Part shown: in pieces, positions 51,279 to 61,148 of the stretch
Layout of the letters: every line of letters starts with the position of its first letter
Numbering within the stretch: the stretch's first letter is position 1
From: an uncultured Flavobacteriales bacterium
Lineage (GTDB): Bacteria > Bacteroidota > Bacteroidia > Flavobacteriales > BACL11
Assembly: GCA_905181585.1 (NCBI GenBank)
Contig: CAJIYG010000005.1
Span: 32,615 to 96,614, forward strand
Length of the DNA stretch: 64,000 nucleotides
Direction of reading: 5' to 3'
Made by a program: the position numbers and the translations under genes
The notes under the pieces: model-generated
What the model was told of the DNA's origin: nothing
The model's input: only the letters and a program-made list of their open reading frames with translations
Databases searched by the model: none

Positions 51279-52154
51279 CTAAATCTTTGATTTTGATGCT
51301 AATAGTGTGTTTTTTAACAACATTGCAATTGTCATAGGCCCTACTCCACCAGGTACGGGAGTTATAAAACTACATTTTTGAGAAACTTCCGAAAAATTAA
51401 CATCTCCAATTAATTTCCATCCTGACTTAGTTATTTCAGATTTTACTCTACTAATACCTACATCAATTACGCAGGCTCCATCTTTTACCATATCAGCGGT
51501 TATAAAATTTGCTTTTCCTAAAGCAACTATTAATATATCTGCTTTAAGACATAGTTCTTTTAAATTAGTTGTTCTACTATGCGCCAGGGTAACAGTTGCA
51601 TTTCCTGGATTTGTATTTCTAGACATTAAAATACTCATTGGAGATCCAACTATATTACTTCTTCCAACTACAACACAGTTCTTTCCACTAGTTTCAATAT
51701 TATATCTAGAAATAAGCTCTATTATTCCAGCAGGAGTAGCTGAGATAAAGGTTGGAAGATTGAGCACCATATTTCCAACATTTAATGGATGAAATCCATC
51801 AACATCTTTAGATGATAGAATAGAGTTTGTCACTAAACTTTCATCAAAGTTTTTAGGTAAAGGAAGCTGAACAATTAAACCGTCTATATCTTCGTTATTA
51901 TTAACCTTTTCAATCTCATTTAGAAGAATGTTTTGAGAAATATTTTCATCTAATCTAATTAGAGTTGATTTAAAACCCACTCTTTCACAAGCTTTCACTT
52001 TAGCATTAACATAAGTTTGACTAGCACCGTTATTACCAACTAAAATAGCAGCAAGATGAGGCTGTTTTCCTGAAGATTTTAAAATTTCATTTACTTCTTT
52101 AGAAATTTCATCTTTAATATCATTAGAAATTTTTTTTCCATCTAGAATTTTCAT
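51279..52154 (-). CDS. folD: Bifunctional methylenetetrahydrofolate dehydrogenase / methenyl-THF cyclohydrolase
   Basis: ASQTYV..K, VQLPLP, GRSNIVG.P and TPVPGGVGPMT motifs. Confidence 0.9.
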   Translation of the reverse strand: MKILDGKKISNDIKDEISKEVNEILKSSGKQPHLAAILVGNNGASQTYVNAKVKACERVGFKSTLIRLDENISQNILLNEIEKVNNNEDIDGLIVQLPLPKNFDESLVTNSILSSKDVDGFHPLNVGNMVLNLPTFISATPAGIIELISRYNIETSGKNCVVVGRSNIVGSPMSILMSRNTNPGNATVTLAHSRTTNLKELCLKADILIVALGKANFITADMVKDGACVIDVGISRVKSEITKSGWKLIGDVNFSEVSQKCSFITPVPGGVGPMTIAMLLKNTLLASKSKI

Positions 52155-52155
52155 A

Positions 52156-53496
52156 TTAAAATTTTGGCATATTATTTCCCTTCATCATTTCCATCATTTT
52201 GGAGGCACCTCCTCCCTGCATCATTTTCATCATTTTACTCATTTGATTAAATTGCTTAATGAGTTGATTAATTTCTTGAACATTAGAACCACTTCCATCA
52301 GCAATTCTCTTTTTCCTACTTCCATTTAAAATAATAGGATTACTTCTCTCTTCAGGCGTCATTGAGTGTATAATAGATTCAATCCCTTTGAAAGAATCAT
52401 TATCAATATCAGCATCTTTAATAGATTTACCAACTCCAGGAATCATAGATGCTAAGTCTTTAATATTACCCATTTTTTTCACCTGCTGTATTTGACTTAG
52501 AAAATCATCAAAACCAAAGGAGTTTTTAGCTATTTTCTTCTGGATTTTTCTTGCGTCCTCTTCATTAAATTGCTGTTGAGCTCTCTCCACAAGAGATATG
52601 ACATCTCCCATTCCAAGAATTCTTCCTGCCATTCTATCTGGGTAAAAAACATCTAAACCATCCATTTTCTCAGAAGTTCCAATAAATTTAATAGGTTTGT
52701 CTACAACTGATCTTATTGTTAATGCTGCTCCTCCTCTTGTATCTCCATCTAGCTTAGTTAGAACAACTCCATTAAAATCTAATTTTTCATTAAAAGATTT
52801 TGCAGTATTTACAGCATCTTGGCCTGTCATAGCATCAACAACAAATAAGGTTTCATTTGGCTTAATATTATCTTTAATTAAGCCGATTTCATTCATCATT
52901 TGTTCATCAATAGCTAATCTTCCTGCTGTATCAATAATAACAACGTCTTTAGAATTTTGTTTTGCAAAGGAAATTGCATTATTAGCAATTTCTACAGGGT
53001 TTTTATTTTCTTCTTCTTTATAAACTGAAACACCCACTTCTTCAGATAAAACTGATATCTGATTTATTGCAGCAGGTCTATATATGTCACAAGCAACTAA
53101 AAGTGGATTCTTTTTAAATTTTGTTTTCAGAAGCAAAGCTAACTTACCACAAAATGTTGTTTTACCTGACCCCTGTAATCCTGCAACAAGTATTATCGTT
53201 GGTTTAGATGAAAGATCTAAATCGGACTTTTCACTCCCCATTAAATTGGAGAGTTCGTCTTTCATTATTTTAGTTAATAATTCACCAGGCTTAAGAGTTG
53301 TCAAAACTTCTTGACCAAGCGCTTTTTCTTTAACAGTAGCTGTAAATTCTTTGGCAGTTTTAAAATCAACATCAGCAGAAATCAGTGCTTTTCTAATTTC
53401 TTTCATCGTCTGAGCTACATTGATTTCAGAAATACTTCCTTGACCCTTTAATATTTTAAAGGCTTTGTCAAGCTTATTGGATAAATTATCAAACAT
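52156..53496 (-). CDS. ffh: Signal recognition particle protein Ffh
   Basis: NG domain GLQGSGKTT, DTAGR and TKLDGD motifs. Met-rich M domain at the C-terminus. Confidence 0.9.
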   Translation of the reverse strand: MFDNLSNKLDKAFKILKGQGSISEINVAQTMKEIRKALISADVDFKTAKEFTATVKEKALGQEVLTTLKPGELLTKIMKDELSNLMGSEKSDLDLSSKPTIILVAGLQGSGKTTFCGKLALLLKTKFKKNPLLVACDIYRPAAINQISVLSEEVGVSVYKEEENKNPVEIANNAISFAKQNSKDVVIIDTAGRLAIDEQMMNEIGLIKDNIKPNETLFVVDAMTGQDAVNTAKSFNEKLDFNGVVLTKLDGDTRGGAALTIRSVVDKPIKFIGTSEKMDGLDVFYPDRMAGRILGMGDVISLVERAQQQFNEEDARKIQKKIAKNSFGFDDFLSQIQQVKKMGNIKDLASMIPGVGKSIKDADIDNDSFKGIESIIHSMTPEERSNPIILNGSRKKRIADGSGSNVQEINQLIKQFNQMSKMMKMMQGGGASKMMEMMKGNNMPKF

Positions 53497-53512
53497 TAAA
53501 TAAATTTTTTAA

Positions 53513-53520
53513 CAAAAATA
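53513..53520 (-). promoter_or_regulatory. -7 promoter box (TATTTTTG) for ffh
   Basis: Exact TAnnTTTG on the minus strand. The G is 17 nt upstream of the start at 53496. Confidence 0.4.
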
Positions 53521-53535
53521 AAGATTTATAAAAAC

Positions 53536-54519
53536 TTAATTATCAAAAATTGAATTAACAAATTCCTTACTATTAAATAATTGTAAATCATCAATCCCTT
53601 CACCAACACCAATGTAACGAACAGGAATATTAAATTGATCAGAAATCCCAATAACTACTCCTCCCTTAGCACTTCCATCAAGCTTTGTTAATGCCAATGA
53701 AGTAACTTTAGTAGCTGCAGTAAATTGCTTTGCCTGTTCTATAGCATTTTGACCCGTCGAAGCATCTAAAACTAACATTACATCATGCGGTGCATTTGGA
53801 ATAATCTTATGCATCACATTTTTAATTTTGGTCAATTCATTCATTAAATTAATCTTATTATGCAATCGACCTGCCGTATCAATAATTACAACATCAGCAT
53901 TTTTAGCTTTAGCAGATTGTAATGTATCAAATGCAACTGAAGCGGGATCAGATCCCATTTCCTGCTTTACAATCTCAACCCCCACCCTATCTGCCCAAAT
54001 TGATATTTGGTCTACAGCAGCAGCTCTAAAAGTGTCTCCAGCGCCAAGAACTACTTTTAAACCAGCACTTTTAAATTTATAAGCAAGTTTTCCAATGGTA
54101 GTGGTTTTACCCACACCATTTACTCCAACAACCATAATAACATAAGGTTCATTTACTTTAGGAATAACAAATTCTTCTAAGTCTTCTTGGATAAAGAGAT
54201 TAGAAATTTCTTCTCTTAAAATAGAATACAGATCTTCAGTATTTATATACTTGTTTTTCTTTACTCTTAATTCAAGATTATTAATTATTTTAAGAGTAGT
54301 TTCCACTCCAATATCTGATGAAATTAAAATTTCCTCAAAATCATCTAAATCATTATCATCAATTTTTGACTTACCGGCAATTTTCTTAGAAATCTTATCA
54401 AAGAAGTTACTTTTAGTTTTATTCAAACTATCATCTAACTTTTGCTTATCAATCTCTTTATCTTCTTGAGATTTATTCTCCCTACTAAATATGTTTTTAA
54501 ACTTATCAAACAATGCCAT
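53536..54519 (-). CDS. ftsY: Signal recognition particle receptor FtsY
   Basis: GVNGVGKTTT, DTAGR and TKLDGSAKGG motifs. I prefer the start MALFDKFK at 54519, because the longer listed ORF would run through the terminator hairpin at 54544-54570. Confidence 0.9.
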   Translation of the reverse strand: MALFDKFKNIFSRENKSQEDKEIDKQKLDDSLNKTKSNFFDKISKKIAGKSKIDDNDLDDFEEILISSDIGVETTLKIINNLELRVKKNKYINTEDLYSILREEISNLFIQEDLEEFVIPKVNEPYVIMVVGVNGVGKTTTIGKLAYKFKSAGLKVVLGAGDTFRAAAVDQISIWADRVGVEIVKQEMGSDPASVAFDTLQSAKAKNADVVIIDTAGRLHNKINLMNELTKIKNVMHKIIPNAPHDVMLVLDASTGQNAIEQAKQFTAATKVTSLALTKLDGSAKGGVVIGISDQFNIPVRYIGVGEGIDDLQLFNSKEFVNSIFDN

Positions 54520-54535
54520 AATATAATCAATAATT

Positions 54536-54570
54536 AAAAAAAAAGCTTCTTTCAAAAATAGAAAGAAGCT
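54536..54570 (-). terminator. Rho-independent terminator/attenuator after the DUF4295 gene
   Basis: A perfect 10-bp inverted repeat, AGCTTCTTTC - 7 nt loop - GAAAGAAGCT (54544-54570), is followed on the minus strand by a T8 run (plus-strand A8 at 54536-43). Confidence 0.6.
54553..54560 (-). promoter_or_regulatory. Candidate -7 box (TATTTTTG) for ftsY embedded in the terminator loop
   Basis: Exact TAnnTTTG on the minus strand, spanning the hairpin loop and the first stem base. The G is 34 nt upstream of the ftsY start at 54519. Confidence 0.3.
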
Positions 54571-54594
54571 AGTTATTAAACGAAAAAATAAAAA

Positions 54595-54747
54595 TTACTT
54601 TTTAGCTAAAAATTCATTTACTTTCTCTTTTGGAACTATTTCAGATTTGAATGAATAAGAACCATTTTGATTTTTAACAACTTTAACTGCCTTAGTAAAG
54701 GCTTTTGCTCCTTTTTTTTGTAATGATGCAACTGTTTTCTTTGCCAT
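54595..54747 (-). CDS. DUF4295-like 50-aa basic mini-protein (not in the supplied ORF track)
   Basis: Translated by hand: MAKKTVASLQKKGAKAFTKAVKVVKNQNGSYSFKSEIVPKEKVNEFLAKK*. It starts 1 nt after the rpmG stop. Its position between L33 and ftsY matches the DUF4295 family of Bacteroidota. Confidence 0.65.
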   Translation of the reverse strand: MAKKTVASLQKKGAKAFTKAVKVVKNQNGSYSFKSEIVPKEKVNEFLAKK

Positions 54748-54748
54748 T

Positions 54749-54931
54749 TTATTTTATTTCTTTGTGAATAGTCATTTTCTTTAAAACAGGATTAAATTTC
54801 TTTAATTCTAATCTATCAGGAGTGTTTTTCTTGTTCTTAGTTGAAATATAACGAGATGTTCCTGGTTTGCCGCTTGCTTTATGCTCAGTACACTCGAGAA
54901 TTACCTGAATTCTATTTCCTTTTTTTGCCAT
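54749..54931 (-). CDS. rpmG: 50S ribosomal protein L33
   Basis: 60 aa, [18 protein letters not shown]...[21 protein letters not shown], which is canonical L33. Confidence 0.9.
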
Positions 54932-54953
54932 TTTTTCTAAATTTATTGGGTTG

Positions 54954-54961
54954 CAAATTTA
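54954..54961 (-). promoter_or_regulatory. -7 promoter box (TAAATTTG) for rpmG-DUF4295
   Basis: Exact TAnnTTTG on the minus strand. The G is 23 nt upstream of the rpmG start at 54931. Confidence 0.45.
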
Positions 54962-54989
54962 ATTAATTTTTGTAAAATCTGTACAAGAG

Positions 54990-56636
54990 TTATATCTTTT
55001 TTACATTAACATAAAACAAGTCATCTCTTATTCTAAAATCTAAAGGATCAAATTCACCTAAATTAATCTCTTGCCATTTGTCATTTGGATAAATTTTATA
55101 CTCTATTAAACCATTACTAACAATAATTGGCATATTAAATCCGTCAATTGCATCCCACTTAAAAATTAGATTAGTATTCCTTCCTACTGTCTTTAATTTA
55201 TATTTAAACTCGGGAATTGAAGTTTGCTCTAAATATTGTTTAAAAAAAATAGTTAAATCCATATTGAGATTTAAATTAAAATATTTGATTATATCTTCTC
55301 CATCAACTGTTGAGGTACTTTTTTCAAGGAAAATATTTTTCAGAGATTTAAACCATATTGAATCATTATCTAAAAAACTTCTTAAAGTATGAAGCATTAG
55401 TGATCCTTTGCTATACATATCTCCACTTCCTTTACAATTAACATGATAATCTCCAAGTATTGGTTTATCATTACGAATTGATTTTTTTTGATTATTTACA
55501 TATTCTAACATTTTATCATAGCCATGCAGACATTCTACATAAAGCACTTCTGAGTAAGTACAAAAACCTTCATGAACCCACATATCAGCAATATCATTTG
55601 ATGTAATACTATTACCCCACCACTCATGACCTGTTTCATGTACGATAATAAAATCAAAATCCAGATCAGAAATATATTTAGTATTTCCTCTATATCCCGG
55701 TAAATAATTATTGCCATATGCTATAGCACTTTGATGTTCCATACCCAAATATGAAGTTTCAACTAAAGCATAGCCATCATTAAAAAAAGGATATTGTCCA
55801 AAATAAAATTCAAAACATTTTAACATTGGTTTAACTTGTTGAAAGTGTTTGTATGCCTTTTCTTTATTGTAGGATAGTACATAATAATCTAAATCCAAAG
55901 TATCTTCTTTACTTATATACTTATCTTTAAAATTTATATAATCTCCTATATTTAGAGTAACATTATAGTTATTAATTGGGTAAGAAACAAACCAAGAAGA
56001 GACTCTACTTTTCTTATTATCTCTGTTAATAAAAGTTGAATCAGAAATTAAATTTCCATTAGATATAATAGGTAAATTTTTATTAATTGTAAAGGTTATT
56101 TTCATACTGTCCGGCTCATCTGATTGATGATCCTTACAAGGCCACCATGAACTAGCCCCTAAACCTTGGCATGAAACACCAACCCAATCATTATTATTAT
56201 CATCTTTTCGCCAGGAAAAACCTCCATCCCATGGGGGGTTTTTGGCTTCTTGGGGTACACCAAAATAGTTACACTTTATTTTAATTTTTTCACCTTCAAA
56301 AATTAATCTTGGAAATTTCACAAAAACAGCATCATATTCTCTTGAGAATTCTAATAAAGAGCCTTCAAACTCGATAGAATTAATTTTTAAATGTTTAAAT
56401 AAATCTATTTGAATTTTATTAAAATCATTGACAGCTATAAAATAAAGTGTGTTAGAAGATTCCTCTAATGTTTTTTTCTCCAAATCAAGATGTATATCTA
56501 AATCATAAAAAAAAACATCATAACAATTCCTTAAAGAGGATAAATTCCCTCTTAAACTATCTCCTTTTGAATAATTCTGAGAAAAAAGATTAGTACTTAT
56601 ACTACATATTAAAATGTAGAAAATTAATCTTTTCAT
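54990..56636 (-). CDS. Exported M1 family zinc metallopeptidase (aminopeptidase N-like)
   Basis: Signal peptide. GMEHQS (GxMEN-like) exopeptidase motif. HETGHEWWGN zinc site with downstream WVHEGF glutamate. Confidence 0.8.
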   Translation of the reverse strand: MKRLIFYILICSISTNLFSQNYSKGDSLRGNLSSLRNCYDVFFYDLDIHLDLEKKTLEESSNTLYFIAVNDFNKIQIDLFKHLKINSIEFEGSLLEFSREYDAVFVKFPRLIFEGEKIKIKCNYFGVPQEAKNPPWDGGFSWRKDDNNNDWVGVSCQGLGASSWWPCKDHQSDEPDSMKITFTINKNLPIISNGNLISDSTFINRDNKKSRVSSWFVSYPINNYNVTLNIGDYINFKDKYISKEDTLDLDYYVLSYNKEKAYKHFQQVKPMLKCFEFYFGQYPFFNDGYALVETSYLGMEHQSAIAYGNNYLPGYRGNTKYISDLDFDFIIVHETGHEWWGNSITSNDIADMWVHEGFCTYSEVLYVECLHGYDKMLEYVNNQKKSIRNDKPILGDYHVNCKGSGDMYSKGSLMLHTLRSFLDNDSIWFKSLKNIFLEKSTSTVDGEDIIKYFNLNLNMDLTIFFKQYLEQTSIPEFKYKLKTVGRNTNLIFKWDAIDGFNMPIIVSNGLIEYKIYPNDKWQEINLGEFDPLDFRIRDDLFYVNVKKI

Positions 56637-56653
56637 TTTAAAGAAAATTATTT

Positions 56654-57136
56654 TTATCTAGTCAAATCTATTGAACAATCAATAGAGTCAAGTTGTCCAG
56701 GAATTAATTCAAATGAAAATATTACATCCATATTACCTGTTGAGTCAGAAAGAACACCATCTCCTTGAATATCCACAGTGATATCAATAGGAAGATTATT
56801 TAAGTTTAACTGAGCCTGAAAAGGTTGTGGCTGAATATTAAAAACGCCTGCACTATTAATTGAGGCTAAAATAATATTTTCTCCTGCTTCAATAAAAATA
56901 TTTGATAAAGTGTCAGATAAAACATTCACAGAATCAGGTAACTCTTCATCTAAAGAAATAATTGTATTTCCAAATTCATAGTCTTCACATAAAGAATTCA
57001 TAACCCAAACTCCTTCAGCATCTTCTAAATTAAAAAAATCTAACGGCCCTAGCTCATCTTCACCTCCACTACTACAAGAAGAGATAAGTGAGAAAATTAA
57101 AAAAGTTTTTGTAAAAAGTGATAAAATATTTTTCAT
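56654..57136 (-). CDS. Lipoprotein of unknown family, paralogue of the upstream gene
   Basis: Lipobox LISSC. Its ~125-aa domain, bracketed by the conserved W..N..CED and (S/I)DC motifs, aligns by eye with the C-terminal domain of the 57147-57758 product. Confidence 0.5.
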   Translation of the reverse strand: MKNILSLFTKTFLIFSLISSCSSGGEDELGPLDFFNLEDAEGVWVMNSLCEDYEFGNTIISLDEELPDSVNVLSDTLSNIFIEAGENIILASINSAGVFNIQPQPFQAQLNLNNLPIDITVDIQGDGVLSDSTGNMDVIFSFELIPGQLDSIDCSIDLTR

Positions 57137-57146
57137 TGTTAATTTA

Positions 57147-57758
57147 TTATTTAGTTAATATCATTGCACAATCGCTAGAGAAATCAATAGAAGTTATTAC
57201 AATATTAATAGAGCCTGAAAAATTTAAATTTAAATATGCTTCAGTAGCAGAAGTTAAATAACCACTTCCAGTAACATCTACATCAATATCTTGTCCTGTA
57301 GTAGGTTCAGAAAATTGAATAGTTGAAGGGGTAACAGTCATTAAACCTTCAGAAGAAATTGTTCCACTTACTAAAGTACCATTTAAATCAATAAATAAAG
57401 ATGATTGGCCATCAGAATTTATATCTATTGTCTCAGGCAATTGATCATTTAATGAAATAGTTGTTAAACCGGCAATAGAAATATCTTCACAGTTAGGATC
57501 TAAATTCCATGTTCCTTGAGCTAAGTCAAAAGCGTAATTACAGCTACCATCATCCGCATTTGCATTAGAATTAAAATTAAAAGCTGTAACATCTATGCAG
57601 CCTAAAATAGGCATGACACAAGATCCATCATCTGTATTTGCTAGATTATTAAAATTTAAAGCGGCAGAATCAGTGCATCCAAGTAATTCCTTTTCACAAG
57701 ATGAAAATATCAAAGAAATTATTGCTAAACTTAAAAGTAAAAGGTAAATATTTTTCAT
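57147..57758 (-). CDS. Lipoprotein of unknown family with two N-terminal Cys-bracketed 21-aa modules
   Basis: Lipobox IFSSC. The modules are GCTDSAALNFNNLANTDDGSC and GCIDVTAFNFNSNANADDGSC, followed by the shared ~125-aa domain. Confidence 0.5.
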   Translation of the reverse strand: MKNIYLLLLSLAIISLIFSSCEKELLGCTDSAALNFNNLANTDDGSCVMPILGCIDVTAFNFNSNANADDGSCNYAFDLAQGTWNLDPNCEDISIAGLTTISLNDQLPETIDINSDGQSSLFIDLNGTLVSGTISSEGLMTVTPSTIQFSEPTTGQDIDVDVTGSGYLTSATEAYLNLNFSGSINIVITSIDFSSDCAMILTK

Positions 57759-57774
57759 GATTTAATAGTATTTC

Positions 57775-57812
57775 AAAAAAAAAGTTGCTATAAATATAGC
57801 AACTTTTTTTTT
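57775..57812. terminator. Strong Rho-independent terminator directly after rpmB
   Basis: A9 - GTTGCTAT - AAAT - ATAGCAAC - T9. It lies 19 nt downstream of the rpmB stop on the minus strand. Confidence 0.75.
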
Positions 57813-57830
57813 ATAATTTCTTTTTAAGTA

Positions 57831-58070
57831 TTAAACTAGTACATTTCCGTTCTCTATAGCTTTAGAGAGGACAGAAGCTATTCCATTTTTATTAATTGTT
57901 CTTAGTGCATTTACAGATACCTTAAGAATAACCCATTCACCAGTTTCTGGAATAAAAAACTTTTTTGTTTGAAGATTAGGATAGAATTTTCTTTTCGTTC
58001 TTCTTTTTGAATGAGAGACATTATTACCTACCATTACTTTTTTACCTGTTATCTGACAAACTTTTGACAT
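57831..58070 (-). CDS. rpmB: 50S ribosomal protein L28
   Basis: [34 protein letters not shown] is canonical L28. 79 aa. Confidence 0.9.
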
Positions 58071-58090
58071 AATTTCTTGATTTTGGATTG

Positions 58091-58098
58091 CAAATATA
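58091..58098 (-). promoter_or_regulatory. -7 promoter box (TATATTTG) for rpmB
   Basis: Exact TAnnTTTG on the minus strand. The G is 21 nt upstream of the start at 58070. Confidence 0.45.
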
Positions 58099-58124
58099 CA
58101 ATCTAACAGTAAATTATAAGAAAT

Positions 58125-59357
58125 TTATTTAAGTTTTTTTATTTCTTTATAAATTAAGTCTAGAGACTTATCTAAAACTTGACTAATAACAAGCTCTCTA
58201 TCTCCACTAAATTGATATTTAGAAACATTAGTTGATGTTGGAGATGTAATTGAGATAAATACAGTTCCTACAGGTTGTTGAGCATTATCTAAAGATGGCC
58301 CTGCATATCCTGTTGTCGAAATTGAAAAATCTGAGTTAAATATTTCACAACAATTATTTGACATAACCTCTGCAACCTGCTTACTAACCGATGAATATTT
58401 TTTAATTAAATCTTTATCAATATTTAAAAATTTATGTTTTATATCATCGGAATAAGCTACTACACCTCCTCTAAAATAAGAAGAAGCTCCAGCATTTGCT
58501 GTAATTTTAGATGCAATTACTCCTCCAGAGCAACTTTCAGCAACCGATAAAGTATAATTATTTAAAGTAAAAAAATCATGAATTTTATTAAAAACATCTT
58601 CTAATATTTCCTCATACACAACAAGCTTACTTAATTTATGTAATTCATTATCAGTTATTTTCTTAAGTTGCTGTAAATCATTACCCTCACTACTTAGTCT
58701 AAGTCTAACAATTCCAGGCTTTGGTAAATATGCAAGTTTTAATTTATGATGTAAATTATTTTCCCATTCATTTAATAAAGATGCAAGTTGAGATTCTGGA
58801 ATATTTTTCACAAAAACTGTTTGGTGTAGAATGAATGGTAAATTATATTTTTTCTTAAAATAAGAAAGAAATTTATTAAGCAAAAACTTCATCTCATAAG
58901 GAACTCCTGGAAATGCAACTAAATGGTTAGATTTATTTAAATAAATTGCCGGAGCTGTTCCTATAGCATTTCTAAAAATTTTTGCTTTTGAAGGAACCAA
59001 AGCCTGTTCTTTATTTAACTTAGAAATATCTTCTCTACCCTTACTTTTAAAAAAAGAAGTTATATCATTTAAAACATCATTATCAACAATTAAAGTATCA
59101 TCAAAATAATCACACAAAACATCCTTTGTCAAATCATCATTTGTAGGCCCCAGACCACCAGTTAAAATAACTAAATTAGATCTTTTATATGCTAAGTCTA
59201 TTGCTTGTAAGATATCTTCTTTATGATCCCTTACAGTGTGAACATAATTACAATGAATACCTACATCACTTAAAGCTTGAGAAATAAAAGTAGCATTGGT
59301 ATTAACAATTTGGCCAATAAGAATTTCATCAGCAATTGAAATAATTTCAGCATTCAT
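58125..59357 (-). CDS. cinA: CinA family protein (MoCF-binding domain + nicotinamide-nucleotide amidase domain)
   Basis: IISIADEILIGQIVNTNA, LTGGLGPT.DD and a C-terminal ESCSGG motif. Confidence 0.85.
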   Translation of the reverse strand: MNAEIISIADEILIGQIVNTNATFISQALSDVGIHCNYVHTVRDHKEDILQAIDLAYKRSNLVILTGGLGPTNDDLTKDVLCDYFDDTLIVDNDVLNDITSFFKSKGREDISKLNKEQALVPSKAKIFRNAIGTAPAIYLNKSNHLVAFPGVPYEMKFLLNKFLSYFKKKYNLPFILHQTVFVKNIPESQLASLLNEWENNLHHKLKLAYLPKPGIVRLRLSSEGNDLQQLKKITDNELHKLSKLVVYEEILEDVFNKIHDFFTLNNYTLSVAESCSGGVIASKITANAGASSYFRGGVVAYSDDIKHKFLNIDKDLIKKYSSVSKQVAEVMSNNCCEIFNSDFSISTTGYAGPSLDNAQQPVGTVFISITSPTSTNVSKYQFSGDRELVISQVLDKSLDLIYKEIKKLK

Positions 59358-59364
59358 AAAATTA

Positions 59365-60249
59365 TTAAAATGCTGTTGTAGGGCCAGTTAGATGTTTTCT
59401 AGGAGCTGGCCTAATACACATAACAGGAATAGGTGAATTATTAATAATATATCTGGCTGTAACACTAATATTATTTGATAATGATAGTTCTTCTTTTTTT
59501 GTCATAATCATAATGATATCATCTTTAAATTTTTTCTCATAATCAAAAATATTATCTCCAATATTCTGCTTAATATCTCCATCAATTATTTCAGCTGTGC
59601 AAGCCACGCCGGCATCTAAAACAAATTTCTCTACTTGATTTAAGTTTTTTAATAATCTTTCTCTTATTTCAATATTGTCCTTTAAAACAACAGAAACAAG
59701 TCTAATTGTAGCACCCCAGTTGCGCGCATATTCTAAGGCATATGTTACTTTTTCTTTTGTTTCCTTGTCCAAGTCTAGCGGAACAATAATATTATTACAA
59801 TCTTGTACCTTATTAATCTCTTTAATTGTTATTACAGGACAATGCGCTAGTCTAACAACCCTTTCGGCGTTTGAGCCAATAACTTTTTTAATCTTATTCT
59901 TTGGAGAACCAGCAGTCCCCATTATTATCAGATCACAAGAAATCATTTCTGCTACTTCATTTATCTGATCATATATTTTTCCTTGAGATACTATTGGCTC
60001 AATTTCAACATTATATTGATCTTTTAAATCGCTAATAATTGCTGATAGTTTATTATGAATTTTTTTCTTTAAATCATGAGAATTATCATCTAAAAATAGA
60101 TTCTGGATAACACTTCTTTCTTCAAGAACAGTTAGTAAAAAAACTTTTGATTTATTAGCCTGAGCAAAATTAAGTGCTTGTTTTAAAGCAGTAATAGACT
60201 GCTCAGAAAATCCTATTGGAACTAATATTTTATTGGGCTTTAGTGACAT
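59365..60249 (-). CDS. Tandem-domain universal stress protein (UspA family)
   Basis: Two Usp domains (ILVPIGFSE... GS..E.V.R...CPV; IIVPLD...). I prefer the start MSLKPNKILVP at 60249 to the listed 60282. Confidence 0.75.
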   Translation of the reverse strand: MSLKPNKILVPIGFSEQSITALKQALNFAQANKSKVFLLTVLEERSVIQNLFLDDNSHDLKKKIHNKLSAIISDLKDQYNVEIEPIVSQGKIYDQINEVAEMISCDLIIMGTAGSPKNKIKKVIGSNAERVVRLAHCPVITIKEINKVQDCNNIIVPLDLDKETKEKVTYALEYARNWGATIRLVSVVLKDNIEIRERLLKNLNQVEKFVLDAGVACTAEIIDGDIKQNIGDNIFDYEKKFKDDIIMIMTKKEELSLSNNISVTARYIINNSPIPVMCIRPAPRKHLTGPTTAF

Positions 60250-60287
60250 ATAATTATTATCTTTACAAATGCAAAAATACATATTAA

Positions 60288-61148
60288 ATGAATAAACTAA
60301 AAGATAGTGAATTAATTCTCACATCTTCAGGAAGAATTTATCATCTAAACTTGAAAGAAGAAGAAGTTTCTGATAACATTATACTTGTTGGCGACCCTGA
60401 GAGAGTTAAACAAATATCCCAAAAATTTGACTCAATTGAATTTACGATTCAACACAGAGAGTTTATAACTCATACAGGTACTTTTAATAAAAAAAGAATT
60501 ACAGTAATTTCAACGGGTATTGGCGCAGATAATATTGACATTGTGATAAATGAACTAGATGCAGTTAAAAATATTGATTTTGACAGAAGAAAGATTAAAG
60601 AAAATAGAAAAAAACTAAATATTATTAGGCTTGGAACTTCCGGCTCATTAAGTAAAAGTATAAGTGTTGATGATTTTGTAGTATCATCATATGCATTAGG
60701 TTTCGATGGTCTTCCATATTTTTATAAAGATAACAGTAGACTGATTAAAGAAGCTGCACAAGAATTTATTCAACACACTAATTGGGATGTAAAGCATGCA
60801 ATGCCTTATGTTATTAAAGCTTCAAACTCATTATTTAAGAATTTTTCTGATTTTAAGCATGGTATAACAGCAACTGCTACTGGATTTTACGGACCCCAGT
60901 CTAGAGAGATCTTTTTAGAATCTTCTATTAAAGATTTTCAAAAAAAAATAGAAAATTATAAATATGACAATGAAATAATAACAAATTTTGAAATGGAAAC
61001 CTCTGCTTTATATTTTTTAGGACAAACTTTAGGCCATAATACACTTACAGTTTGTGCAATTCTTGGAAATAGGATAAATCAATCTTATAGTAAAACTCCT
61101 ATGAAAACAATAAATAAATTAATTGATAAGGTGTTAGAGAGAATTTAA
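60288..61148 (+). CDS. Nucleoside phosphorylase (PNP_UDP_1 superfamily, uridine/purine nucleoside phosphorylase-like)
   Basis: LVGDPERV, STGIG, R.GT.G and FEMET motifs. Confidence 0.65.
   Translation: MNKLKDSELILTSSGRIYHLNLKEEEVSDNIILVGDPERVKQISQKFDSIEFTIQHREFITHTGTFNKKRITVISTGIGADNIDIVINELDAVKNIDFDRRKIKENRKKLNIIRLGTSGSLSKSISVDDFVVSSYALGFDGLPYFYKDNSRLIKEAAQEFIQHTNWDVKHAMPYVIKASNSLFKNFSDFKHGITATATGFYGPQSREIFLESSIKDFQKKIENYKYDNEIITNFEMETSALYFLGQTLGHNTLTVCAILGNRINQSYSKTPMKTINKLIDKVLERI

Follow-up and report, generated by a model that had tools for sequence, protein, structure and literature searches.

A lipoprotein and aminopeptidase cassette between rpmB and rpmG is a stable variant of the bL28-bL33-bL38 operon in a marine Flavobacteriales clade

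In Flavobacterium johnsoniae, RNA sequencing and ribosome profiling established that rpmB, rpmG, and rpmL, that is, the genes for the ribosomal proteins bL28, bL33, and bL38, form a three-gene operon; bL38 is the present name of the protein annotated as DUF4295 (PMC7797042, PMC11851116). We collected 33 Bacteroidota loci with an FtsY-based genome scan and compared their gene orders; in 20 of these, rpmB and rpmG are separated by just 8–23 nucleotides (nt) that contain no promoter box. The locus described here is located in 64,000 nt of DNA (the window) from an uncultured bacterium of the Flavobacteriales lineage BACL11 (assembly GCA_905181585.1, contig CAJIYG010000005.1, positions 32,615 to 96,614). 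The window shares with F. johnsoniae and other Bacteroidia the three ribosomal genes, their order and orientation, and the downstream ftsY; however, 2.9 kb with three non-ribosomal genes (the cassette) intervene between rpmB and rpmG, so that the two genes are 2,899 nt apart with a terminator between them. Because rpmB-rpmG-rpmL is a demonstrated operon whose genes are adjacent in other Bacteroidota, the cassette splits a ribosomal-protein operon; our literature searches returned no description of this split operon. A previous annotation of the window from its letters and open reading frames (ORFs), the sequence-only reading, described rpmB, rpmG, a 'DUF4295 mini-gene', and ftsY as a contiguous cluster in Bacteroidota; the short gaps in the 20 loci and the F. 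johnsoniae operon agree with this, and the mini-gene is where it was placed, but it is the ribosomal-protein gene rpmL.

All of the genes discussed are encoded by the minus strand, in the order cinA, rpmB, lipoA, lipoB, the M1 gene, rpmG, rpmL, and ftsY (ORF list). The cassette consists of lipoA (57147..57758; a 203-residue lipoprotein), lipoB (56654..57136; a 160-residue lipoprotein), and a gene for an exported M1-family zinc aminopeptidase of 548 residues (54990..56636); as the sequence-only reading stated, the genes are co-directional, with intergenic gaps of 10 and 17 nt, and its coordinates match the ORF list.

The gene order is old, has been inherited vertically, and is fixed in an uncultured, AT-rich marine clade of Flavobacteriales. 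Approximately 60 contigs from relatives have the order rpmB / one or two lipoproteins / M1 / rpmG, with M1 identities as low as 54%. The nearest relative in the genome collections (L001; FtsY 83% identical) has the same three genes, and a more distant relative (L003; FtsY 67%, M1 54%) shows lipoprotein-M1-rpmG as far as its contig extends. Homologs of the M1 protein number in the thousands, the best 120 being 60–86% identical; for all six that we examined in context (60–86% identity), the gene lies at the rpmB|rpmG junction behind one or two ORFs that match no Pfam family, and the rest of the neighborhood is syntenic. A lipoprotein-domain profile identified 46 loci in metagenomes, and all 46 have rpmB / lipoprotein(s) / M1 / rpmG as far as the contigs reach; among the six M1 contexts and these 46 loci, we found no M1 ortholog or lipoprotein homolog outside of the rpmB|rpmG junction. 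In a neighbor-joining FtsY tree (200 bootstraps), the M1-bearing loci are monophyletic (97.5% bootstrap) and the loci with two lipoproteins are a subclade of these (85%); therefore, lipoB arose by tandem duplication. The identity of M1 tracks those of FtsY (rho 0.67, n = 28) and L28 (rho 0.65, n = 39). The one closed genome that we saw in the clade has a size of 2.1 Mb (L081, OZ238992.1).

The composition of the cassette is native. Its GC content is flat in the GC profile of the window, its GC content at third codon positions is 0.158 (background, 0.156), and its relative synonymous codon usage correlates with that of the rest of the window with r = 0.98; the comparison with the flanks that the sequence-only reading proposed thus yields no foreign signature. 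No integrase, transposase, or tRNA gene is present among the called genes of any locus examined, and no flanking repeats were noticed; with native composition and the cassette in every sampled member of the clade, the locus does not have the hallmarks of a mobile element or genomic island. The sequence-only reading regarded the cassette as an insertion, a view that a shared gene order in close relatives would contradict; close and fairly distant relatives do share the order, so the cassette is neither special to this genome nor recent, and 'insertion' is apt only in the sense of an ancient interruption. The gene content and its conservation, the native composition, and the motifs described below with their conservation are direct observations. 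The feature is a variant of the bL28-bL33-bL38 operon that is stable and defines the clade.

The interruption is accompanied by transcription signals that were read against the start-site map of Flavobacterium psychrophilum, in which the sigma-A −7 box is located at −12 to −5 and the median leader is 24 nt (PMC9723704). In the window, the −7 box TAnnTTTG is not enriched overall (110 found, 122 expected) but is strongly enriched 14–33 nt upstream of start codons (~16 of 60 genes, ~1 expected), so its position is informative; both the box positions and the usual lengths of the leaders are consistent with the map of F. psychrophilum (PMC9723704). A generic sigma-70 scan was uninformative in this AT-rich DNA (36 sites, 38.5 expected). 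Boxes at the distance typical of Bacteroidota sigma-A promoters (~15–35 nt) precede rpmB (20 nt), rpmG (22 nt), and ftsY (33 nt). The actual starts of transcription, and any read-through, are what we infer from these motifs.

The rpmB gene (57831..58070; PF00830, Ribosomal_L28, 95 bits) is now a single-gene unit; its −7 box, TATATTTG, is at 58091..58098, and the promoter would drive rpmB as far as a terminator hairpin. The predicted intrinsic terminator, A9-GTTGCTATA-TTTA-TATAGCAAC-T9 (57775..57812), begins 18 nt past the rpmB stop codon, has its T9 directly after the stem, and has a folding energy of −18.7 kcal/mol (z = −6.4; not matched by any of 200 shuffled sequences), in agreement with the strong terminator noticed in the sequence-only reading; its sequence is conserved across the cassette clade. 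The hairpin was also considered as a repeated element, and this was rejected: the 64-kb window has no second copy. A search of Rfam with positions 53400–59500 (E ≤ 1) returned only a chance microRNA match on the hairpin.

In 33 of 39 distinct rpmB-lipoprotein spacers from relatives, the hairpin loop contains a −7 box of the form TAT[CA]TTTG (TATCTTTG or TATATTTG), 16–45 nt before the lipoprotein ATG, and the box persists where the hairpin has decayed. Thus, in most relatives the cassette would normally be served by a promoter of its own within the rpmB terminator, and the loop box would restart transcription for lipoA-lipoB-M1. The 72-nt spacer in the window (57759 to 57830) contains no TAnnTTTG, so the sequence-only reading was correct that lipoA lacks a consensus promoter; its extension, that the cassette depends on read-through from rpmB, does not hold as a general rule given the loop boxes of the relatives and is possible only for the window genome with its G-less box. 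The loop element, TATATTTA (57798-57791, inside the terminator loop), is a −7 box minus its G; the same loss (TATATTTA or TATCTTTA) is seen in L099 (a near-identical copy), L087 (a close relative), L106, and L109, and in all five spacers whose loop box lost only the G, a G comes directly after the T9. The window has a TTG in the 5′ arm of the hairpin (GTTGC), 17 nt upstream of TTTTTTTG (57774..57781; the end of the T-run plus G), a candidate −7-like element. We envisage a 1-nt deletion that took the G from the loop box in the window and in the relatives nearest to it, after which the lipoprotein genes would rely either on a weaker or shifted promoter (the 5′-arm TTG and the T-run-G with 17-nt spacing) or on terminator leakage; both are possible.

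Two further observations concern M1 transcription. A candidate internal promoter, TAGATTTG (56670-56663), was rejected; it is not conserved in relatives and lies within Ile-Asp-Leu codons. The sublineage whose cassette has just one lipoprotein shows a GC-rich hairpin followed by T7 (AGCCCTTTTAAGAGGGCTTTTTTT) that ends directly at the M1 ATG (L081:5960-6000; L090:5955-6000), so lipoprotein and M1 may be separate transcription units there.

Downstream of the cassette, rpmG (54749..54931; Pfam Ribosomal_L33) and rpmL (54595..54747; Pfam DUF4295) have their own predicted promoter, as the sequence-only reading proposed: the −7 box TAAATTTG (54954..54961) is 22 nt upstream of the rpmG ATG. Every split locus has an rpmG box, 21–30 nt before the ATG, and the sequence downstream of it is conserved too; in all of the cassette-bearing relatives, the box is conserved as TTAATTAAATTTGCAGCCCAATAAAT. 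No terminator was found between M1 and rpmG, where the spacer folds at just −3.3 kcal/mol; because M1 is not followed by a terminator, cassette transcripts probably run on into rpmG-rpmL, which would thus be served both by these and by the conserved promoter.

A second hairpin with a loop box would end rpmL and start ftsY. This rpmL terminator hairpin (AGCTTCTTTC..GAAAGAAGCT + T9; 54544..54570) contains the probable ftsY −7 box, TATTTTTG (54560-54553), in its loop, 33 nt before the ATG at 54519; the box is in the loop in eight of nine loci of the cassette clade, and the rpmB and rpmL hairpins are the only two elements in the window that combine a terminator with a loop box. The longest ftsY ORF opens at a TTG (54555) within the hairpin; judging from alignments with homologs and from the promoter box, translation most likely begins at ATG 54519 (ftsY, 53536..54519; Pfam SRP54). 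As a separate observation, the rpmL hairpin (AGCTTCTT..AAGAAGCT + T-run) is conserved in sequence beyond the clade, in Flavobacteriales with an M24 gene (vide infra), Crocinitomicaceae, and Solitalea, and more weakly in other Bacteroidota (window 54544-54570; rpmL-ftsY spacers of L002, L004, L005, L006, L093, and L094). Such wide sequence conservation is unusual for a plain intrinsic terminator, and Rfam has no match; a conserved RNA element at the 3′ end of the ribosomal-protein operon is a possible explanation.

The sequence-only reading's two paralogous lipoproteins are confirmed: lipoA and lipoB are 31% identical over 126 residues (E = 6e-15), with lipoB a tandem paralog of the C-terminal domain of lipoA, and both have signal peptides that end at Cys21 in a lipobox recognizable from its sequence pattern (..LIFSSC21 in lipoA, ..LISSC21 in lipoB), with S20 and C21 invariant in the alignment of homologs. 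In lipoA, the Cys is followed by two 20-residue Cys-flanked repeats, CTDSAALNFNNLANTDDGSC and CIDVTAFNFNSNANADDGSC, and then by the clade-specific beta domain. The repeats (residues 22-73; window 57600-57695) have the pattern C-T/I-D-x2-A-x-N-F-N-x3-A-x-x-D-D-G-S-C and no Pfam match; similar repeats are found in other ORFs near the cluster of relatives (L112:216-1406, L117:213-821, and the L141 spacer). The family is tiny, with 26 proteins identified by a word-based search and 54 representative clusters among 1.84 billion in an exhaustive profile search; no Pfam or NCBIfam model matches lipoA or lipoB, even at E ≤ 5. The AlphaFold model of lipoB (mean pLDDT, the predicted local distance difference test, 82; core >90) is all-beta with approximately ten strands, and Cys 50 and 154 are invariant in the alignment; the domain would be beta-barrel-like with a probable disulfide. 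Foldseek against the PDB returns weak lipocalin-, avidin-, LpqH-, and BT3507-like matches (best E = 3.6e-3, template modeling score 0.31); 'beta-barrel-like' is descriptive only.

The Bacteroidota signal for export of lipoproteins to the cell surface is C-X-K-(D/E)2 or an S-D-D-like acidic run at positions +2 to +6 (PMC5080379). The sequence of lipoA after processing would begin C-E-K-E-L, with a single acidic residue following the K, and that of lipoB C-S-S-G-G-E-D-E, with the acidic run shifted to +6..+8. Neither a SusC-type TonB-dependent transporter nor a SusD-like lipoprotein is encoded among the called genes 5–6 kb to either side in relatives (L081-L091) or among the ORFs of window positions 52000–61000, so the locus does not resemble a Sus-like polysaccharide utilization locus.

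The assignment of the third gene as an exported M1 aminopeptidase is borne out by its Pfam match (Peptidase_M1, PF01433; 64.3 bits, cut-off 27.7; residues 267-468) and signal peptide. The zinc site is HETGH 333-337 with Glu356 (HEXXH-X18-E) and the catalytic Tyr is Tyr408; H333, E334, H337, E356, and Y408 are invariant in eight orthologs that extend to 54% identity. The exopeptidase motif GXMEN occurs as an invariant LGMEH variant (GMEH 298-301) that retains Met-Glu at its core and has His instead of Asn. Gln20, directly after the signal peptide, is invariant in the orthologs, in agreement with the Bacteroidetes Q-rule for signal peptidase I substrates (PMC5837995), and cleavage before Gln20 is probable. 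The scores against the PepN/LTA4H equivalog models TIGR02412, TIGR02411, and TIGR02414 (45.5, 27.6, and 21 bits) are far below the cut-offs (591–762), and by this measure the protein is in a separate, short M1 subgroup. The closest solved relative by sequence is a two-domain M1 protein from Deinococcus radiodurans (PDB 6a8z and 6iff, 'zinc metalloprotease'; E = 1.7e-17, residues 16-422); both proteins are short, have the HEXXH+E site, and lack the large ERAP1-type C-terminal domain, but their similarity is low and the window protein adds the signal peptide, the GMEH variant, and a C-terminal tail of ~80 residues. The strict pairing of lipoproteins and M1 argues for a shared function. For the localization and substrate, we infer that the lipoproteins and M1 most likely act together in the periplasm or at the outer membrane, where they would trim peptides and so supply amino-acid uptake.

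An exported peptidase at the junction is not unique to the cassette clade: an unrelated aminopeptidase fills the same position in other families of Flavobacteriales. The sequence-only reading had called a secreted peptidase module behind a ribosomal-protein promoter unusual. In L002 (8114-9541), a 475-residue Xaa-Pro aminopeptidase (AMP_N + Peptidase_M24) with a signal peptide is encoded between rpmB and rpmG, and in all five contexts examined for its homologs (54–75% identity), the M24 gene directly follows rpmB (4001-5430 in L093, L094, L095, L096, and L097); these are from a marine metagenome-assembled genome (MAG), a 4.4-Mb genome, Parvicella tangerina (L095), a Crocinitomicaceae-labelled MAG (L096), and Vicingus serpentipes (L097). 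The gene is between rpmB and rpmG in L002, L093, L094, L095, and L096; the V. serpentipes contig ends at the M24 gene. At the N-terminus of each M24 protein, Ala/Gly-Gln comes after a hydrophobic stretch; the 64-kb window contains no M24 homolog. The Vicingus, Parvicella, and MAG loci thus share with the window the junction, the orientation, an exported aminopeptidase, an rpmB terminator, and an rpmG promoter; they differ in the peptidase family (M24 instead of M1), in lacking the lipoproteins, and in forming their own clade on the FtsY tree (89%; deeper nodes are weak). The rpmB hairpins of L096, L097, and L094 resemble that of the M1 clade (GTTGCTATCTTTATAGCAAC compared with CTTGTTATCTTTATAGCAAG and GTTGTTACTTTAGTAGCAAC), and the rpmG promoter regions are alike in most M1- and M24-type loci, both at 22 nt (TAAATTTGCAGCCCAATAAAT compared with TAAATTCGCAGCCCATTAGAAT). 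These similarities hint that the junction was opened once and the cargo exchanged later; two independent insertions are also possible. Additional genes follow the aminopeptidase in some genomes: after M1 in L081 (7717-11356, OZ238992.1), an 899-residue S8 peptidase and a 309-residue protein with a sorting tail of the type IX secretion system (T9SS), and after M24 in P. tangerina L095 (5475-7118), a 547-residue T9SS-tail protein.

The surroundings of the junction also vary. In the window, cinA (59357-58125) encodes a 410-residue CinA with a MoCF domain, unlike the single-lipoprotein sublineage, in which it is cut to a CinA domain of 157–158 residues (L081:4555-5031; L084:4606-5082; L090:4627-5100); that sublineage also has a MiaB-like radical-SAM gene between ftsY and ffh that is absent from the window. 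In a Crocinitomicaceae MAG (L005, 9414-9520), the spacer from rpmB to rpmG extends to an unusual 95 nt and holds GTAATTCGTGGG, which faintly resembles the sequence around the rpmG promoter in split loci; this spacer may be the scar of a lost cargo gene.

We favor, with reasonable confidence, an ancient and vertically inherited interruption of the Bacteroidia rpmB-rpmG-rpmL operon that left a chain of compact, rewired units and placed among them a putative envelope peptide-trimming cassette of one or two clade-restricted lipoproteins and a Sec-exported M1 zinc aminopeptidase. Several points weigh against this explanation: the window has no exact TAnnTTTG before lipoA, and the proposed replacement, TTTTTTTG, does not have the A that is conserved at position 2; the promoters and terminators are called from motifs and conservation; the 33 spacers with a loop box share ancestry and are not 33 independent observations; the lipoprotein fold is weakly matched; and the single thread that ties the lipoproteins to M1 is their strict co-occurrence. 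A recent horizontal acquisition, a mobile cassette, or an assembly chimera might be suspected from genes that are foreign to the canonical cluster and from lipoproteins of no known family; we consider it very improbable, because the order recurs in dozens of independent contigs from various samples and assemblers, GC content is flat and codon usage native, the divergence of the cassette parallels that of the flanking genes, and neither integrase, transposase, and tRNA genes nor flanking repeats were encountered. The alternative that the cassette was inserted behind rpmB without a promoter and owes its expression to transcripts that read through from the ribosomal-protein promoter is unlikely, even if far less so. 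The co-directional, tightly packed genes and the spacers without an exact box (the window, L087, L099, L106, and L109) are compatible with it, as is the nonconserved TAGATTTG, which leaves M1 without a reliable promoter of its own; however, a strong terminator separates rpmB from lipoA, the ancestral and majority state is a −7 box in the hairpin loop 16–45 nt before the ATG, the G after T9 in all five G-less spacers suggests that TTTG was retained, and the arrangement is not a recent insertion.

The remaining alternative assigns more to selection: the junction would have been opened once in a common ancestor of several families of Flavobacteriales and retained as a site for expressing exported peptidases, with its cargo exchanged (M24 in one group, lipoprotein and M1 in the other, with S8/T9SS proteins added in some genomes), coupling scavenging to ribosome synthesis. 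The junction does look like a long-lived slot for exported peptidases, given M24 in L002 and all five homolog contexts, the S8 and T9SS-tail proteins in L081 and L095, and the similar hairpins and 22-nt promoter regions of the two types. Nevertheless, the M1 and M24 types are separate on the FtsY tree, and L005, L006, and L007, with adjacent rpmB and rpmG, are beside them (the nodes for this placement are weak, 64.5% and 24.5%); the similar promoters and terminators could reflect general constraints instead of shared ancestry, and small genomes tend to keep gene order, so persistence is possible without selection. We regard a selected slot as a tentative idea, somewhat less implausible than dependence on read-through. 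Its broadest form, in which one opening followed by cargo exchange spans Vicingaceae, Parvicellaceae, the MAGs, and the marine clade and the terminator/−7-box hairpins tune scavenging with ribosome synthesis, is more doubtful still.

With the ancient interruption as the preferred explanation, the locus shows cleanly, and with good sampling, how a ribosomal-protein operon found throughout the phylum was split and rewired: compared with the F. johnsoniae arrangement, rpmB gained a terminator and rpmG-rpmL a promoter, with terminator and promoter packed into one hairpin. Nothing in this is mechanistically new, and the arrangement may simply have persisted without selection. Two unrelated families of exported aminopeptidases are nevertheless found at exactly one junction in different Flavobacteriales, and the order rpmB / lipoprotein / M1 / rpmG is a simple marker for the cassette clade. 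Proteins and peptides are the main diet of marine Flavobacteriales; because of this lifestyle and the long retention of the peptidase module beside ribosomal genes, the module is a testable candidate for growth-coupled nutrient acquisition.

Ribosomal operons with non-ribosomal passengers are familiar from Escherichia coli, that is, secY-adk-map at the end of the spc operon and rpsU-dnaG-rpoD. As in the marine clade, non-ribosomal genes, there with housekeeping functions, have long been kept in a ribosomal transcription unit, and the spc passengers even include a peptidase, the M24 enzyme encoded by map. The E. coli passengers, however, are cytoplasmic or serve translation or secretion, whereas the cargo of the marine clade comprises predicted exported nutrient-scavenging enzymes and orphan lipoproteins, in an operon that appears to have been cut into separately promoted pieces.

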